From assembly GCF_013315695.1 (NCBI RefSeq), contig NZ_CP054353.1: DNA of 64,000 nt; one strand, written 5' to 3'. Positions within the stretch are counted from its first letter, which is position 1, and each line of letters begins with the position of its first letter. The notes below the pieces were generated by a model. It searched no databases, was not told where the DNA came from, and worked only from the letters and a program-made list of their open reading frames with translations. The DNA comes from Escherichia coli. Lineage in GTDB: Bacteria > Pseudomonadota > Gammaproteobacteria > Enterobacterales > Enterobacteriaceae. Both the position numbers and the translations under genes were made by a program. Below are positions 2,351 through 44,824 of the stretch, in pieces.

Positions 2351-3187
2351 ATGCTCGCAGATATCAGATATTGGGAAAACGATGCCACAAATAAACATTA
2401 TGCAATTGCCCATTTTAACGTATGGAATGCAGAAATGTTGATGGGCGTTATCGACGCAGCCGAAGAAGCGAAATCACCGGTTATTATTTCTTTTGGTACA
2501 GGTTTTGTCGGGAACACCTCATTTGAAGATTTCTCTCACATGATGGTATCAATGGCACAAAAAGCAACGGTGCCGGTAATAACTCATTGGGATCATGGTC
2601 GGAGTATGGAAATTATTCATAACGCCTGGACTCATGGTATGAATTCATTAATGCGTGATGCTTCCGCATTTGATTTCGAAGAAAATATTCGTTTAACCAA
2701 AGAGGCTGTTGATTTCTTCCATCCGCTGGGTATTCCGGTAGAGGCGGAATTAGGGCATGTCGGTAATGAAACCGTTTATGAGGAAGCGCTGGCGGGCTAT
2801 CACTATACCGATCCTGACCAGGCGGCTGAATTTGTTGAACGTACGGGCTGTGACTCATTGGCTGTCGCCATCGGCAACCAGCATGGAGTTTATACGTCAG
2901 AGCCACAATTGAACTTTGAGGTCGTCAAACGCGTACGCGATGCTGTTTCTGTTCCGCTGGTTTTGCATGGCGCATCAGGGATCAGTGATGCCGACATTAA
3001 AACTGCAATTTCGTTGGGTATTGCGAAAATCAACATTCATACGGAGCTCTGTCAGGCCGCAATGGTAGCAGTGAAAGAAAACCAGGATCAGCCTTTCCTG
3101 CATTTAGAACGTGAAGTGCGTAAAGCTGTAAAAGAACGGGCATTGGATAAAATTAAACTGTTCGGTTCTGATGGCAAAGCGGAATAA
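2351..3187 (+). CDS. ydjI: class II (metal-dependent) aldolase, FBP/tagatose-bisphosphate aldolase family
   Basis: 278-aa ORF; length, sequence and position match E. coli YdjI. Confidence 0.9.
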   Translation: MLADIRYWENDATNKHYAIAHFNVWNAEMLMGVIDAAEEAKSPVIISFGTGFVGNTSFEDFSHMMVSMAQKATVPVITHWDHGRSMEIIHNAWTHGMNSLMRDASAFDFEENIRLTKEAVDFFHPLGIPVEAELGHVGNETVYEEALAGYHYTDPDQAAEFVERTGCDSLAVAIGNQHGVYTSEPQLNFEVVKRVRDAVSVPLVLHGASGISDADIKTAISLGIAKINIHTELCQAAMVAVKENQDQPFLHLEREVRKAVKERALDKIKLFGSDGKAE

Positions 3188-3191
3188 TGAT

Positions 3192-4139
3192 ATGGATAAT
3201 CTCGACGTTATTTGTATAGGTGCCGCTATTGTTGATATTCCATTGCAACCGGTCAGTAAAAATATCTTTGATGTGGATTCTTATCCTCTTGAAAGAATCG
3301 CAATGACCACCGGGGGTGATGCAATAAATGAAGCAACAATTATTTCTCGTCTGGGCCATCGCACAGCATTAATGAGTCGTATTGGTAAAGATGCCGCAGG
3401 GCAATTTATTCTCGACCATTGCCGCAAAGAGAATATTGATATTCAAAGCCTGAAGCAGGACGTCAGCATAGATACCTCAATTAACGTTGGACTGGTGACG
3501 GAGGATGGCGAGCGGACGTTTGTCACAAACCGTAACGGCAGTCTGTGGAAATTGAATATTGACGATGTTGATTTTTCGCGGTTTTCTCAGGCGAAATTAT
3601 TATCTCTGGCCAGTATTTTCAACAGTCCTCTATTGGATGGTAAAGCGCTAACAGAAATTTTTACGCAAGCTAAAGCCCAGCAGATGATTATCTGTGCCGA
3701 TATGATCAAACCGCGGTTGAATGAAACGCTGGATGATATTTGCGAAGCATTGAGTTATGTCGATTATCTGTTTCCTAATTTTGCCGAGGCAAAATTACTC
3801 ACCGGGAAAGAGACACTGGATGAAATTGCTGACTGCTTTCTTGCGTGCGGCGTAAAAACGGTGGTGATTAAAACGGGTAAAGACGGCTGCTTTATCAAGC
3901 GTGGTGACATGACGATGAAGGTGCCGGCGGTCGCAGGAATAACCGCCATCGACACCATTGGCGCGGGCGATAACTTTGCTTCAGGTTTTATTGCGGCACT
4001 GTTAGAAGGCAAAAATCTGCGTGAATGCGCACGCTTTGCCAATGCAACGGCGGCTATCTCGGTTCTAAGCGTCGGTGCCACCACCGGCGTAAAAAACAGA
4101 AAGCTGGTCGAACAATTGCTGGAAGAATACGAAGGATAA
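3192..4139 (+). CDS. ydjH: PfkB/ribokinase-family sugar kinase
   Basis: ORF 3171..4139 trimmed to the ATG giving 315 aa (MDNLDVICIGAAIVD); C-terminal GAGD anion-hole motif of ribokinase-like kinases. Confidence 0.88.
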   Translation: MDNLDVICIGAAIVDIPLQPVSKNIFDVDSYPLERIAMTTGGDAINEATIISRLGHRTALMSRIGKDAAGQFILDHCRKENIDIQSLKQDVSIDTSINVGLVTEDGERTFVTNRNGSLWKLNIDDVDFSRFSQAKLLSLASIFNSPLLDGKALTEIFTQAKAQQMIICADMIKPRLNETLDDICEALSYVDYLFPNFAEAKLLTGKETLDEIADCFLACGVKTVVIKTGKDGCFIKRGDMTMKVPAVAGITAIDTIGAGDNFASGFIAALLEGKNLRECARFANATAAISVLSVGATTGVKNRKLVEQLLEEYEG

Positions 4140-7499: not shown

Positions 7500-7551
7500 A
7501 TCTTTCGTTGATGGCATCAATTGCCAGATGTACCACTGACGTGTTTTATTT

Positions 7552-7582
7552 GGCCTACAATGGCAGTACAGAATTGTAGGCC
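7552..7582. terminator. inverted repeat (GGCCTACAAT..ATTGTAGGCC) between convergent ydjE and pncA; candidate bidirectional terminator
   Basis: 10-bp perfect inverted repeat read directly in the intergenic gap; no strong U-tract, so efficiency is uncertain. Confidence 0.45.
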
Positions 7583-7591
7583 AGCGTAAAA

Positions 7592-15115: not shown

Positions 15116-15152
15116 AGGTTCTTTCAACCATCTGATACTGAAGATTTTTATG

Positions 15153-15182
15153 GCCGGATAAGGCGTTTGCGCTGTATCCGGC
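15153..15182. repeat. REP (repetitive extragenic palindrome) element
   Basis: GCCGGATAAGGCG...TATCCGGC palindrome in the 76-bp spacer between convergent topB and gdhA. Confidence 0.6.
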
Positions 15183-15191
15183 ACAATTGTC

Positions 15192-20159: not shown

Positions 20160-21691
20160 TAGCGGAGTCCTTGTCTGACATAACCTACCCATTTTGCGAC
20201 TAACGCGGTCAGGGCAAAAATAATAAGCGGTAATAGCAGTTGCCATAAAGCCTGGGCGGCAAGAATACCGTTGCTGCCGCCGCTGCTTAATGCCACCGCC
20301 TCAGTGGTGAGCGTCGGAAAACGCCCCGCGCCCAGCCACAGCGTCGGCATATACTGCGCAATACTGACTGAAAATCCCACCGCGAAGGCAATCAGCGTAG
20401 GGTGTAGCATAAGCGGACATTTCACGTAAAAGAAGATTTTGGACCGCGACCAGCCCAGTGTTTGCGCAATCAAAATTAACCGTGAATCAATGCGCTGCCA
20501 GGCGGGTTGCAGGATAAACAGCATCCACGGCATTACCCACAGCAGATGCCCCCAGACCACCGCTGTCCAGCTTCCATCCAGGTTTAGCCATAGCGCCAGC
20601 GTGTACTGGCCCGCCACCAGTGGCAGAGCAGGTAATAAAATGGGCAACCATAGCCACAACTGGCGACGCTGTGGCCCCCATTCCAGCCACAGCAGTAACA
20701 GGAGCAAAGCGATGAATGTCGCCACCAGCCCCATTGTCAGGCTGTTGATGAGCGCTTCACTATTGATCGTCGACTGATCCGCGAGGATCGCCAGCAGAAC
20801 CACACACAGCACACCGGTTAAGGGTAAAAAACTCGCCAGCGTAATGCCTGGCAATAAAGGCGTGGCAGGCTTACGAACGCCATCTACGCGGGGAATAGTA
20901 CGCCGCCAGTTACGCCATAGCAGATAGCCCAGCAAAACGTAGGCGGCGAGTAACAGCAGCAGCAGGCTGGCGAGTGCGCCTTTCATCTGTTGTTCGGCGT
21001 CGCCCTGGGTTAACCACTGCCAGCTAATTACCGCCAGCGTCGGGGGATTACCTGGCCCAAGAATAATCGCCACATCCACGACCGACAGCGACCAGGCAAC
21101 AATCGCCAGCATCGCCATTGCCAGCGCAGGCGCGATAGAGGGCAACAGCAGCCAGTTCAGGCATTGCCAGCGGCTGTAGCCCAGCGAATCCAGCACAATG
21201 ACCTGCTGCAATAGCCGTTTTTCGCTCAATACTGCCGCTAAGATCCACAGCAGAAATGCGCTTTCTTTCACCGCCAGGGTGAGGCCCAGCCCAATACCAA
21301 ATTTGTCCATTGGCGGAGTGAAATACGGGAAATAGTCATAAAGCAGCCCTCCGTCAGCAAACAGCAACAGGGCGCTGGTGGCAAAAGCAACATGGGGAAT
21401 GGCGAGCAGCCACGGCAGACGGGCGCACATATGCTGCCATTTCGGTCCAGGCCACAGCGCCACAATCACCAGCAGGGCAATCAACAACGCCCCGACCGCC
21501 GCAATGGTTGTCGACACCAGCGTCGCCAGTAATGCCTGCGGTAACTGTGGATCGGCAAATAACGCCTGCCAGTGCGTCAACGACAAAGCAGGCGATATCA
21601 GCGTGAGAGCTGCCGGGATCAGCGGTGCATAAATCACCGCTATCATCGCCCACAGCAAAAAGATTAATGCGTACCGTAACGGTGTAGCCAT
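20159..21691 (-). CDS. ynjC: ABC transporter permease (two fused permease domains)
   Basis: Long hydrophobic ORF 20159..21715; start codon uncertain (ATG at 21691 chosen). Confidence 0.8.
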   Translation of the reverse strand: MATPLRYALIFLLWAMIAVIYAPLIPAALTLISPALSLTHWQALFADPQLPQALLATLVSTTIAAVGALLIALLVIVALWPGPKWQHMCARLPWLLAIPHVAFATSALLLFADGGLLYDYFPYFTPPMDKFGIGLGLTLAVKESAFLLWILAAVLSEKRLLQQVIVLDSLGYSRWQCLNWLLLPSIAPALAMAMLAIVAWSLSVVDVAIILGPGNPPTLAVISWQWLTQGDAEQQMKGALASLLLLLLAAYVLLGYLLWRNWRRTIPRVDGVRKPATPLLPGITLASFLPLTGVLCVVLLAILADQSTINSEALINSLTMGLVATFIALLLLLLWLEWGPQRRQLWLWLPILLPALPLVAGQYTLALWLNLDGSWTAVVWGHLLWVMPWMLFILQPAWQRIDSRLILIAQTLGWSRSKIFFYVKCPLMLHPTLIAFAVGFSVSIAQYMPTLWLGAGRFPTLTTEAVALSSGGSNGILAAQALWQLLLPLIIFALTALVAKWVGYVRQGLR

Positions 21692-33886: not shown

Positions 33887-35387
<1,501 letters not shown>

Positions 35388-35481
35388 TGTTGACTCCGAG
35401 TGCTGGTTATCTATCCAGTGTAACAGGCGGGGAGCGATTAAAAAAGAGGCGGGTTGATGACAAAGGTTACACCGTCAGACG

Positions 35482-35578
35482 TGCTACGCCTGTCAGGCCT
35501 ATTCGACTCATGCAATATATTGAATTTGCATAGTTTTGTGGGGCGAATAAGGCGTTCACGCCGCATCCGGCGTGAACA
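35482..35578. repeat. BIME-like pair of REP elements
   Basis: Two REP-type palindromes (TACGCCTGTCAGGCCTA and GGCGTTCACGCCGCATCCGGCGTGAAC) in the spacer between cho and nadE. Confidence 0.55.
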
Positions 35579-35616
35579 AAGTACTCTTTTTCGCACAAAC
35601 CAATATGTGCAAATTA

Positions 35617-36444
35617 TTACTTCTTCCAGAAATCATCGAAAACGGTAATTGGCGGACGGCGTTTATGTTCAGTTTTCAGATACCAGTTCTCTATTGTTCT
35701 GGCGACCTGTTCAGGTACGTTTTTCCCTTCCAGATAGTCGTCGATATTGTCATAGGTCACGCCGAGTGCCACTTCATCTGGTAGAGAAGGGCGATCATCT
35801 TCCAGATCGGCCGTTGGCGCTTTCTTATAAAGGTGTTCCGGGCAACCTAATGCCGCCAGTAACTGTTTACCCTGACGTTTGTTAAGACGATACAGTGGAT
35901 TAATGTCCGTACCGCCGTCACCATATTTAGTGAAGAATCCGGTAATGGCTTCTGCTGCATGATCGGTGCCCACCACGACACCGCTGGTCATACCCGCAAT
36001 GCTATATTGTGCTTTCATCCGCTCACGCGCTTTTTCATTGCCACGGACAAAATCGCTCAGTTCAATGCCTGCTTCCCGCAATGCCTGCTCGCTGGCCAAT
36101 ACCGCGCCCTTGATATTAACGGTTAATACGCGATCCGGTTGAATAAAGGCAATGGCATCCTGGCAATCTTGTTCGTCAGCCTGAACACCATAGGGCAGGC
36201 GTACGGCAATAAATTGCAGTGATTCGTTGCCAGTTTCCTGGCGCAGCTCATTAATCGCCATCTGGCACAGCTTTCCGGCAAGCGTGGAGTCCTGACCGCC
36301 GCTGATCCCGAGCACCAGTGATTTAATGAACGGATAAGTTTGCAGGTAGCTTTTCAGAAAATCGACACTACGACGAATTTCCTCTTCAGCATTAATCTGC
36401 GGTTTTGCGCCCAGCGCCTTTATTATTTGTTGTTGCAATGTCAT
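35617..36444 (-). CDS. nadE: NH3-dependent NAD+ synthetase
   Basis: 275-aa ORF with the PP-loop SGGQDS motif. Confidence 0.95.
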
Positions 36445-42516: not shown

Positions 42517-42526
42517 GTAAGGTGGT

Positions 42527-42554
42527 AAGGTCACTCCCCAGGGGGCGTGACCTT
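42527..42554. terminator. shared hairpin between convergent chbG and katE
   Basis: AAGGTCAC...GTGACCTT perfect 8-bp stem with an inner CCCC/GGGG pairing in the 46-bp spacer. Confidence 0.55.
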
Positions 42555-42562
42555 ATCCATAT

Positions 42563-44824
42563 TTACGCCGGAATTTTGTCAATCTTAGGAATGCGTGACC
42601 ACACGCGGTGTGCTGCCATCAGCGTTAACAGTTCATCCATAAAACTACCATCGGCGCTGTCAGCTTCCACAATCCCTTCTTCACCCTGATCAGCGACCTT
42701 GATTCTTACTTTAAACTTGCGCGCGTCTCCTGCCAGCGCAATCGGTTTAAGGTGTTTGTAGGCTTCCATCAGGTAGTAGTTGGCATCGCCGTTGTCAGCG
42801 ATATCCGCGATATTGCCGCAAGGGACAATAACCGCATCGACCGTCAGCGAAGGCGCTCCGGCAAATGTAGCGGCTATAGGCAGCACCGTACCGTCATCCG
42901 CAGTCACTTCACCCATTCGGGAGTAGAGCAGTTTGGCATGAACGCCTTTGGCCTTCAGCGCCTTGAGAATGGCCAGAAGGTCTGCCGATCTCACTTCATC
43001 ATTAAGTAAAATCGCTACCACGCGACCTTTCACATCACCGTCAGGAATGGCGTACAAACTTAAGGATGGATCCTTTTTCAGACCGTTGACGTCCGGAGGC
43101 GGGGTGATATTCAGCTGGTCGTCCGTCAGCTCGATACCGAGATTTTTCGCCACCGCCTGGGCCAGAGTGAGATCAATATGTGCCAGCTGGTCAACAACGC
43201 GCTCACGAATATACGGACGAACTACTTTGCTTAACTCAAAACTGAAACCATCGACAATATGGCGCTGCTCGAATGGCGTCTGACTTAGCCAGAACAGACG
43301 CGGATGGGAATAATATTCGCCAAACGATGGGCTGCGCTCGCGAACTTTATTGCCTTCCACGCGCTCCTGGTATGATTCAAAACCGCCGCGTTTCGGCCCC
43401 GGCGGTGTTTCGCGCGGCCAGTTATCGTTGATCGAGTTCGGTTCATAATTCGCCGGGTTAGTGTCGATCCCCATACGATGCATGCCGTCACGCTGGAAAT
43501 TATGGTAAGGGCAGGTCGGGCGGTTAATCGGAATCTCATGGAAATTTGGTCCGCCAAGACGACTGATTTGTGTATCGGTATAAGAGAACAAACGCCCCTG
43601 CAACAGCGGATCGTTGGTGAAGTCCAGACCAGGAACAATATGACCTGGATGGAATGCTGCTTGTTCGTTTTCGGCAAAGAAGTTATCCGGATTGCGATTG
43701 AGCACCATTTTGCCGACACGCTGAACGGGCACCAGTTCTTCCGGGATAAGTTTAGTTGGATCAAGAAGGTCGAAGTCGAACTTAAATTCATCTTCCTCAG
43801 GAATCAACTGGAAGCCCAGTTCGTATTCCGGAAAATCGCCGGCTTCAATCGCTTCCCACAACTCGCGGCGGTGGAAGTCCGGGTCACGTCCGGTTAGTTT
43901 TTGTGCTTCATCCCAAACGAGTGAGGCTTTACCTGCCAGTGGTTTCCAGTGGAAACGTACGAACGTTGCCTTCCCTTCGGCATTAATCAGGCGGAAGGTG
44001 TGAATACCGAAGCCTTCCATGGTGCGGTAACTGCGCGGGATACCGCGATCCGACATCGCCCACATCACGTTGTGCAGAGTTTCAGGTTGCAGAGAAACAT
44101 AATCCCAGAAAGTATCGTGGGCGCTTTGCCCTTGTGGAATTGCCCAGTGTGGTTCTGGTTTTACCGCATGCACAAAATCAGGGAATTTATGCGCATCCTG
44201 GATAAAGAAGATTGGCGTGTTATTGCCAACAAGGTCAAAAATACCCTCTTCGGTATAGAACTTGGTGGCAAAGCCACGGATATCACGCACGGTATCGGCA
44301 GAGCCAGCACCACCCTGAACGGTAGAGAAACGTACAAATACTGGGGTGATTTTGTTCGGATCTGAGAGGAAATCCGCTTTGGTAATATCGCTTAAGCTTT
44401 TATATGGCTGGAAATAACCGTGAGCGGCTGATCCGCGTGCATGAACAATACGTTCCGGGATGCGCTCATGGTCAAAGTGGGTGATTTTCTCGCGCAGAAT
44501 AAAATCTTCCAGCAGCGTTGGACCACGGTTACCGGCACGCAGTGAGTTTTGATCGTCGGCGATGCGCACGCCCTGATTAGTGGTCAGCGCATAATTTTCA
44601 CTGCCTTTGCGTACGTCTTCCAGAGAATTAAGTTTTTCGTTACGCGTATCAGGGGCTTTCAGGCTCCCAGGGGCGGTAGGTTGTGCACCTGGCGGTGTTG
44701 GTTCAGCCGCTGGACGATGAGATCCGTCTTCAGGTGCCAGTGAGTCCATCCCCGGTTTCGCTTCGCTGGAATCGTGTAGTGGTGACTGGTGCTGATGTGG
44801 GTTCTTTTCGTTATGTTGCGACAT
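42563..44824 (-). CDS. katE: catalase HPII (large-subunit monofunctional catalase)
   Basis: 753-aa ORF with catalase core and C-terminal flavodoxin-like domain. Confidence 0.95.

Follow-up and report, generated by a model that had tools for sequence, protein, structure and literature searches.

The spacer between nadE and cho of Escherichia coli contains palindromic DNA, which raises the question of what kind of element lies there, how it came to this site and what it could do for the genes on either side. The original prediction, made from the window (the whole 64-kb stretch of DNA analysed here), placed two REP-type palindromes of opposite orientation, forming a BIME-like pair, at 35482-35578 between the two genes. 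The location is borne out, since NCBIfam models recognised both neighbours at their called coordinates, i.e., nadE (NAD+ synthase NadE, 445.8 bits) at 35617-36444 and cho (excinuclease Cho, 577.8 bits) at 34500-35387, both on the minus strand, which puts the repeat in a 229-bp spacer (35388-35616) lying 3′ of nadE and 5′ of cho. The window is of E. coli origin, colinear over its 64 kb with strain MSB1_4I (514 substitutions, 0 indels, 99.2% identity), and positions 35300-35700 are 100% identical to that strain. No repeat feature is given at the nadE-cho spacer in the RefSeq records examined, including the record of K-12 (NC_000913.3, in a copy that contains no repeat features anywhere).

Judged by family homology, the nadE-cho feature is a single BIME-1 on the minus strand, occupying about 35451-35598. 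BIME-1 is also named RIB ('reiterative IHF BIME') or RIP ('repetitive IHF-binding palindromic' element), and its members have been described as y and z1 REPs, inverted relative to each other, with a long conserved L linker between them in which an IHF site is often present (PMC3333891, PMC2817692). A scan with the linker core across one genome per species found dozens of loci in Escherichia and Pseudocitrobacter that share one common layout, AGATTGCTGACAAAGTGCGCTTTGTTCAT - GCCGGATGCGGCGTGAACGCCTTATCCGGCCTAC - AAAATCATGCAAATTCAATATATTGCAGAAATCTT - GTAGGCCTGATAAGCGTAGCGCATCAGGC - AATTTTGCGTTTGTCATCAGTCTCA, and a distant BLAST search with the 148 bp of the element found from 17 to at least 40 related places in each of 5425 E. 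coli genomes. An HMM profile was trained on 89 independent copies from Escherichia and Pseudocitrobacter, excluding the orthologous nadE-cho locus. It aligned to 35598..35451 and covered model positions 9-155 out of 170, with 115.5 bits and an E value of 4.3e-35, a score of which the linker share is inflated and circular because the training copies were chosen for having the exact L core that is also present in the window. The alignment therefore gives an element of about 148 bp, wider than 35482-35578. The start originally predicted at 35482 trims 8 nt off the z1 REP and has to be replaced, and the BIME-like pair can be specified as BIME-1, with an L linker and A and B flanks that had gone unmentioned. 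On the nadE-sense strand, the order is A flank, y REP, L linker, inverted z1 REP and B flank; the element starts 18 nt past the nadE stop codon, ends upstream of the LexA box of cho and forms one unit in the spacer, with no tandem structure. The features, in order along the nadE-sense strand, are as follows.

35592-35611, minus strand: small hairpin, from a reading of the spacer on the nadE-sense strand.
35572..35598, minus strand: A flank, TTGTGCGAAAAAGAGTACTTTGTTCAC, from the full-element profile; diverged from the family consensus TTGCTGACAAAGTGCGCTTTGTTCAT.
35554..35577, minus strand: perfect 10-bp hairpin, GTTCACGCCG-GATG-CGGCGTGAAC, made of the end of the A flank and the head of the y REP, from an inverted-repeat search.
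35538..35571, minus strand: y-type REP, GCCGGATGCGGCGTGAACGCCTTATTCGCCCCAC, 3 mismatches to GCCGGATGCGGCGTGAACGCCTTATCCGGCCTAC.
35503..35537, minus strand: L linker of 35 nt, with the core TGCAAATTCAATATATTGCA at 35511-35530.
35474..35502, minus strand: eroded z1 REP, inverted, ATAGGCCTGACAGGCGTAGCACGTCTGAC, from its position in the BIME-1 layout and from canonical orthologues.
35451..35473, minus strand: B flank, GGTGTAACCTTTGTCATCAACCC, from the end of the full-element profile alignment.
35440-35450, minus strand: conserved block GCCTCTTTTTT, outside the BIME, between the element and the LexA box of cho (context).
35403-35418, minus strand: LexA-box-like CTG-N10-CAG, CTGGATAGATAACCAG, upstream of cho, read directly from the sequence (context).

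The last two features belong to the surroundings of the repeat. The GCCTCTTTTTT block was also found in Salmonella and Citrobacter, whose spacers contain no BIME, and is therefore part of the cho upstream region, not of the element. Cho is SOS-regulated, and among the Escherichia orthologues its LexA-like box has invariant flanking CTGGAT and ACCAG, with 3 inner changes in E. whittamii, while the box of Salmonella and Citrobacter is retained as CTGGATGAATAACCAG. On the other side of cho, the Salmonella locus and three Citrobacter loci are without ves (HutD family) and have spy directly after cho (compare window 33900-34540); the ves gene of E. coli overlaps the end of cho.

The y REP is a genuine member of its family. 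It differs from GCCGGATGCGGCGTGAACGCCTTATCCGGCCTAC at only 3 positions, a match that none of 100 shuffles gave (0 expected by chance), and a y-only profile recognised it at E 1.4e-9; together with the element profile (E 4e-35), this comparison with the REP/BIME consensus upholds the BIME type of the original prediction. The A flank is not significant alone (E 2.4), and joined to y it adds about 13 bits. Folding of the y REP gave -11.6 kcal/mol versus -21.3 kcal/mol for the consensus, with a weakened outer stem, and its tail reads CCAC rather than CTAC in the window, which turns GTAG into GTGG. The tail is mostly CTAC across the ten E. coli strains compared, CTAT in K-12 and CCAC in the window haplotype. 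The hairpin at 35554-35577 was present in all MFE and centroid folds, and its canonical copies contain one G-U pair, owing to a T where the window has C. In the Rfam comparison, naRNA4, an RNA derived from REP325, aligned weakly with the y REP through its first repeat. In addition, on the plus strand the window-type left flank (35554-35615) shows weak similarity (nhmmer E 0.008) to a y tail in inverted orientation together with the beginning of an L linker, and it may stem from an inverted partial duplication or from template switching.

The stretch at 35474-35502 is the z1 homologue, as recognised from its position in the layout and from the canonical orthologues of E. whittamii and Escherichia sp. 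E1V33. Its identity to the consensus is 22/29, within the lowest 9% of the 89 family copies, and neither a search with the z1 consensus at up to 3 mismatches nor a z1-only profile at E≤10 gave a match; combined with the B flank, a profile reached E 0.004. The predicted fold (-8.0 kcal/mol, z -1.0, versus -11.5 kcal/mol for the consensus) has a pairing unrelated to the REP stem, and the head of the repeat reads ATAG rather than GTAG. Both GTAG motifs are kept in 72 of the 89 family copies and both are lost in the window copy, and the eroded z1 is common to all ten E. coli strains. Of the two opposite palindromes originally proposed, the y REP and the BIME-type pairing thus stand, but z1 is no longer a REP palindrome.

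The core of the L linker is identical to the family majority. Rfam model RF02751 (ES036/CssrF) matched 35495-35537 on the nadE-sense strand with 38.9 bits against a gathering score of 37.6, and an IHF-like site, ATTCAATATATTG, was predicted at 35513-35525, agreeing with WATCAANNNNTTR at 8 of 9 specified positions. The inter-REP sequence has been reported to bind IHF (PMC2817692), and by analogy the intact linker core may be regarded as a predicted IHF site. The feature had been proposed to bind both DNA gyrase and IHF, of which the IHF part agrees with the literature on the BIME-1 linker; strong gyrase binding and cleavage are attributed to BIME-2 (PMC2817692, PMC6379681), and for this reason gyrase binding is not an expected property of the nadE-cho copy.

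Several readings other than a worn repeat have to be weighed against this picture. An origin of the palindromes by chance, in a spacer of mixed AT and GC content, would agree with the z1, A and B modules, none of which exceeds chance in module-wise profiles taken singly, and with the isolated REPs of the window, which fold no better than many shuffles; its probability is nevertheless practically nil, since it is refuted by the full-length profile match, the y match, the Rfam score above threshold and the canonical orthologues. RNA folding predicted strong structure both for the whole spacer (-60.1 kcal/mol, z -4.5) and for the element (-50.2 kcal/mol, z -4.35), and this structure, together with the above-threshold RF02751 match on the nadE-sense strand, could speak for an sRNA gene of the ES036/CssrF kind, or for a source of an sRNA derived from the nadE 3′ UTR, instead of a mere repeat. 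We consider this very unlikely: ES036 itself is a 43-nt RNA-seq fragment from another locus (K-12 740211-740253), its model corresponds to the repeated BIME-1 linker, with the same flanks at dozens of loci, a scan of the spacer found no promoter-like site, and the sRNA tables of PMC4676190 list no transcript at the K-12 nadE-cho spacer (1823286-1823514), so that an sRNA gene was rejected. The RF02751 match follows from membership in the repeat family and is no proof of an sRNA gene at nadE-cho.

It is likewise quite improbable that the region is primarily an intrinsic (Rho-independent) terminator of nadE, to which the resemblance to REPs would be secondary. A perfect GC-rich hairpin of 10 bp lies 39 nt past the nadE stop codon, and the A-run at 35584-35591 pairs in the MFE fold with the conserved T-run at 35440-35450, as such a reading would have it, but the T-run is about 100 nt from the strong hairpin and at least 10 nt from the last weak one, it is kept in Salmonella and Citrobacter without the element and is hence part of the sequence upstream of cho, and the hairpins share homology with a repeat found at dispersed loci. 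A scan for intrinsic terminators over 35300-35700 gave 0 sites, and this candidate was rejected. The part of the 3′-end mapping tables of PMC7815308 that was available has no entry for nadE or the nadE-cho spacer.

The history of the BIME-1 copy could be followed through its orthologues. At the same site, E. whittamii and Escherichia sp. E1V33 contain a BIME-1 with canonical y and z1 REPs, and K-12 contains the same copy as the window with 95% identity. The nadE-cho spacers of Salmonella enterica and three Citrobacter loci, 93-120 bp in length, have a single REP-like hairpin, and no BIME-1 was found in them. The canonical copies in the two Escherichia relatives and the absence in Salmonella and Citrobacter thus indicate a gain within the Escherichia lineage, and region 35300-35700 is intact (≥80% coverage) in 5425 of 5426 complete E. 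coli genomes; taken together, the sequence comparisons show a BIME-1 that the Escherichia lineage acquired in this spacer and that was fixed, and later eroded, in E. coli, with an insertion age that is only bracketed within the genus. Nine records of the same genome comparison fall in an 80-90% identity band.

The divergence along the spacer is uneven. From the nadE stop codon through the y REP (35538-35616), 5/79 sites differ from E. whittamii versus 52/126 four-fold sites of nadE (41%; Fisher p 1e-8), and in z1 8/29 sites differ. The low divergence of 35538-35616 could reflect either constraint or short-tract recombination. Within E. coli, the polymorphism of the element (8/148) is like that of four-fold sites (6/126), which argues against strong current constraint. 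Over 35572-35619, there are two deeply different left-flank haplotypes, one in the window, K-12 and E. whittamii and another in E. coli CP52E and E1V33, and these trans-specific haplotypes suggest recombination between Escherichia clades. As separate observations, the CP52E/E1V33 haplotype (TAAACAGTGCGGCCTCCCCGCCTGAGATTGTCGACACC...) is nearer to the canonical A flank than the window type, and CP52E carries this second left flank together with an E. coli-type eroded z1, suggesting that it is a recombinant. In the same haplotype, CCCGCCT stands directly before and after the element (about positions 70-90 and 215-235 of the E1V33 locus), like a target-site duplication, a reading that is held back because the 3′ CCC may be the element's own end.

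Whether the copy could still move, or attract other elements, was a further point of the original prediction, which presented such repeats as known insertion targets. BIMEs have been proposed as non-autonomous elements mobilised by RAYT (PMC2817692, PMC3333891), and the nadE-cho copy might accordingly be a still-mobile MITE- or REPIN-like element of this kind, or else a live hotspot for REP-targeting insertion sequences; most E. coli retain CTAC at the y tail, and BIME-1 content varies by strain nearby, where katE-chbG has one in K-12 and none in the window. Even so, we regard this as extremely unlikely, given that z1 is eroded in every E. coli sampled, that all 5425 matching genomes carry the copy uninterrupted at this one site, and that both GTAG motifs are mutated in the window (to GTGG and ATAG), where the REP-associated transposase (TnpA-REP/RAYT) requires GTAG 5′ of the REP foot for binding and cleavage and such mutation abolishes both (PMC3333891). 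The natural target of IS621 is the 11-nt ATCRGGCCTAC, ATCAGGCCTAC/ATCGGGCCTAC (PMC11208160), and neither form matched anywhere in the window at 0-1 mismatch; the nearest sequence, GTCAGGCCTAT in the z1 tail (35492-35502), has 2 mismatches and is at chance level. A check against other strains found no insertion sequence at the site in any of the 5425 complete E. coli genomes with a match, and since 35300-35700 occupies one uninterrupted place in all of them, none has an IS-sized insertion. The idea of an insertion target or IS hotspot is thus rejected for this site, whereas the companion statement that no transposase is present agrees with the annotation of the 99.2%-identical strain, which gives none across the 64 kb and no RAYT gene either. 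With the z1 palindrome broken and both GTAG motifs mutated in the window haplotype, the nadE-cho BIME-1 is therefore most likely an immobile relic.

Other repeats of these families were seen in the window and elsewhere. The katE-chbG spacer has only 44 unrelated bases in the window (42523-42566), and in K-12 it holds a canonical BIME-1 plus extra hairpins (about 21166-21310 of locus L003), so that BIME-1 content is polymorphic 7 kb away from the fixed nadE-cho copy. A solitary y-type REP, GCCGGATACAGCGCAAACGCCTTATCCGGCCAT, lies on the minus strand at 15144-15187 between gdhA and topB (27.5 bits, E 4.6e-8), where K-12 has ynjI, a gene that the window strain is without. Between the convergent pncA and ydjE, a 10-bp hairpin, GGCCTACAAT...ATTGTAGGCC (7546-7585), is possibly a stripped BIME remnant consisting of two facing REP tails without REP bodies. 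BIME-1 has been described as occurring in single copies (PMC3333891); Escherichia sp. MOD1-EC7003 contains eight tandem copies of a 107-bp y-L-z1 unit with 96% matches (2667-3524 of locus L117), and shorter y-L-z1 arrays occur at two other loci. Canonical E. coli-type BIME-1 copies on very short contigs of Desulfosporosinus sp. OT, Methylobacterium frigidaeris, Alkalicoccobacillus porphyridii and a Collinsella MAG are probably enterobacterial contamination in these four non-enterobacterial assemblies. Apart from repeats, an intact ORF of 632 aa on the minus strand (53693-55591), annotated as type III effector EspL1 in the near-identical strain, stands where K-12 has the pseudogene arpB.

Given its identity, layout, decay, fixation and lineage of origin, as read from the comparisons presented here, the feature is with high confidence a worn BIME-1 copy at the 3′ end of nadE, gained in Escherichia, fixed and decayed, to which IHF- and RNA-related roles may be ascribed. 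Acquired between nadE and cho in the Escherichia lineage, the copy reached fixation in E. coli and then lost its z1 palindrome and, in the window haplotype, both GTAG motifs, leaving intact the L-linker core with the family's IHF-binding site and the strong hairpin at the A/y junction. Published properties of the BIME-1 family suggest what this remainder could do. At the DNA level, it may be a site of IHF binding and bending, and at the RNA level, it could give nadE a strongly folded 3′ UTR hindering 3′-to-5′ decay, so that the stabilisation of upstream mRNA, which the original prediction had mentioned, is plausible for this copy. REPs have also been reported to facilitate Rho-dependent termination (PMC2817692, citing Espeli et al. 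2001), and a folded 3′ UTR together with Rho could attenuate transcription ahead of the LexA-controlled cho promoter, with less read-through into this SOS-regulated gene. Of these roles, the most likely are those of an IHF site and of a structured 3′ UTR for nadE.

A bolder and rather unlikely reading is that the fixed, immobile BIME-1 has been recruited to separate nadE, a housekeeping gene, from cho, an SOS gene, as a functional boundary. Selection would then have maintained the hairpins nearest to nadE (pre-A, A and y; 35538-35616) as a stabiliser of the 3′ UTR and as a Rho-assisted block to read-through, and the intact predicted IHF site, which lies about 90-120 bp 5′ of the LexA box, might shape the architecture of the cho promoter. 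The single observation in favour of such a boundary is the divergence contrast between 35538-35616 (5/79) and the four-fold sites of nadE (52/126), which is equally explained by short-tract recombination between Escherichia clades. Under the preferred explanation of a worn BIME-1 copy, the feature is real, correctly located and an ordinary, already known member of a repeat family of long standing. Knowledge of BIME-1 in E. coli goes back to the early 1990s, and one more copy has little import beyond correct annotation. The Rfam match to the 'ES036 sRNA' should be read here as a repeat, not a gene, and the copy offers an example of element ageing, in which one palindrome and the transposase motifs were lost and the core with the IHF site was kept.

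Compared with known systems, the nadE-cho element resembles REPIN/RAYT systems and REPtrons in being an inverted REP pair of the kind on which RAYT acts, but differs from them in having no RAYT gene annotated in the 64 kb, in the loss of GTAG on both REPs and in its fixed presence. The 43-nt RF02751 model (ES036, CssrF) aligns over its full length with the L linker and the head of z1, although the RNA-seq fragment that gave the model its name came from a different BIME-1 of K-12 (740211-740253). With BIME-2, the gyrase-binding y/z2 arrays with S linkers for which genome-wide enrichment of gyrase cleavage has been reported (PMC6379681), it shares a y REP and the general REP/inverted-REP layout, but it is without a z2 REP, a short S linker and a tandem array. 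Even as a BIME-1 it is an altered copy, with a z1 of 22/29 that has lost the REP hairpin, a y outer stem at -11.6 versus -21.3 kcal/mol, both GTAG motifs mutated and A and B flanks far from the consensus; yet it agrees with the definition of BIME-1 (PMC3333891, PMC2817692) in combining one y REP and one inverted, though eroded, z1 REP, with their tails turned towards the long conserved L linker and its IHF-like site, and in lying, with A and B flanks and as a single unit, at the 3′ end of a transcription unit.
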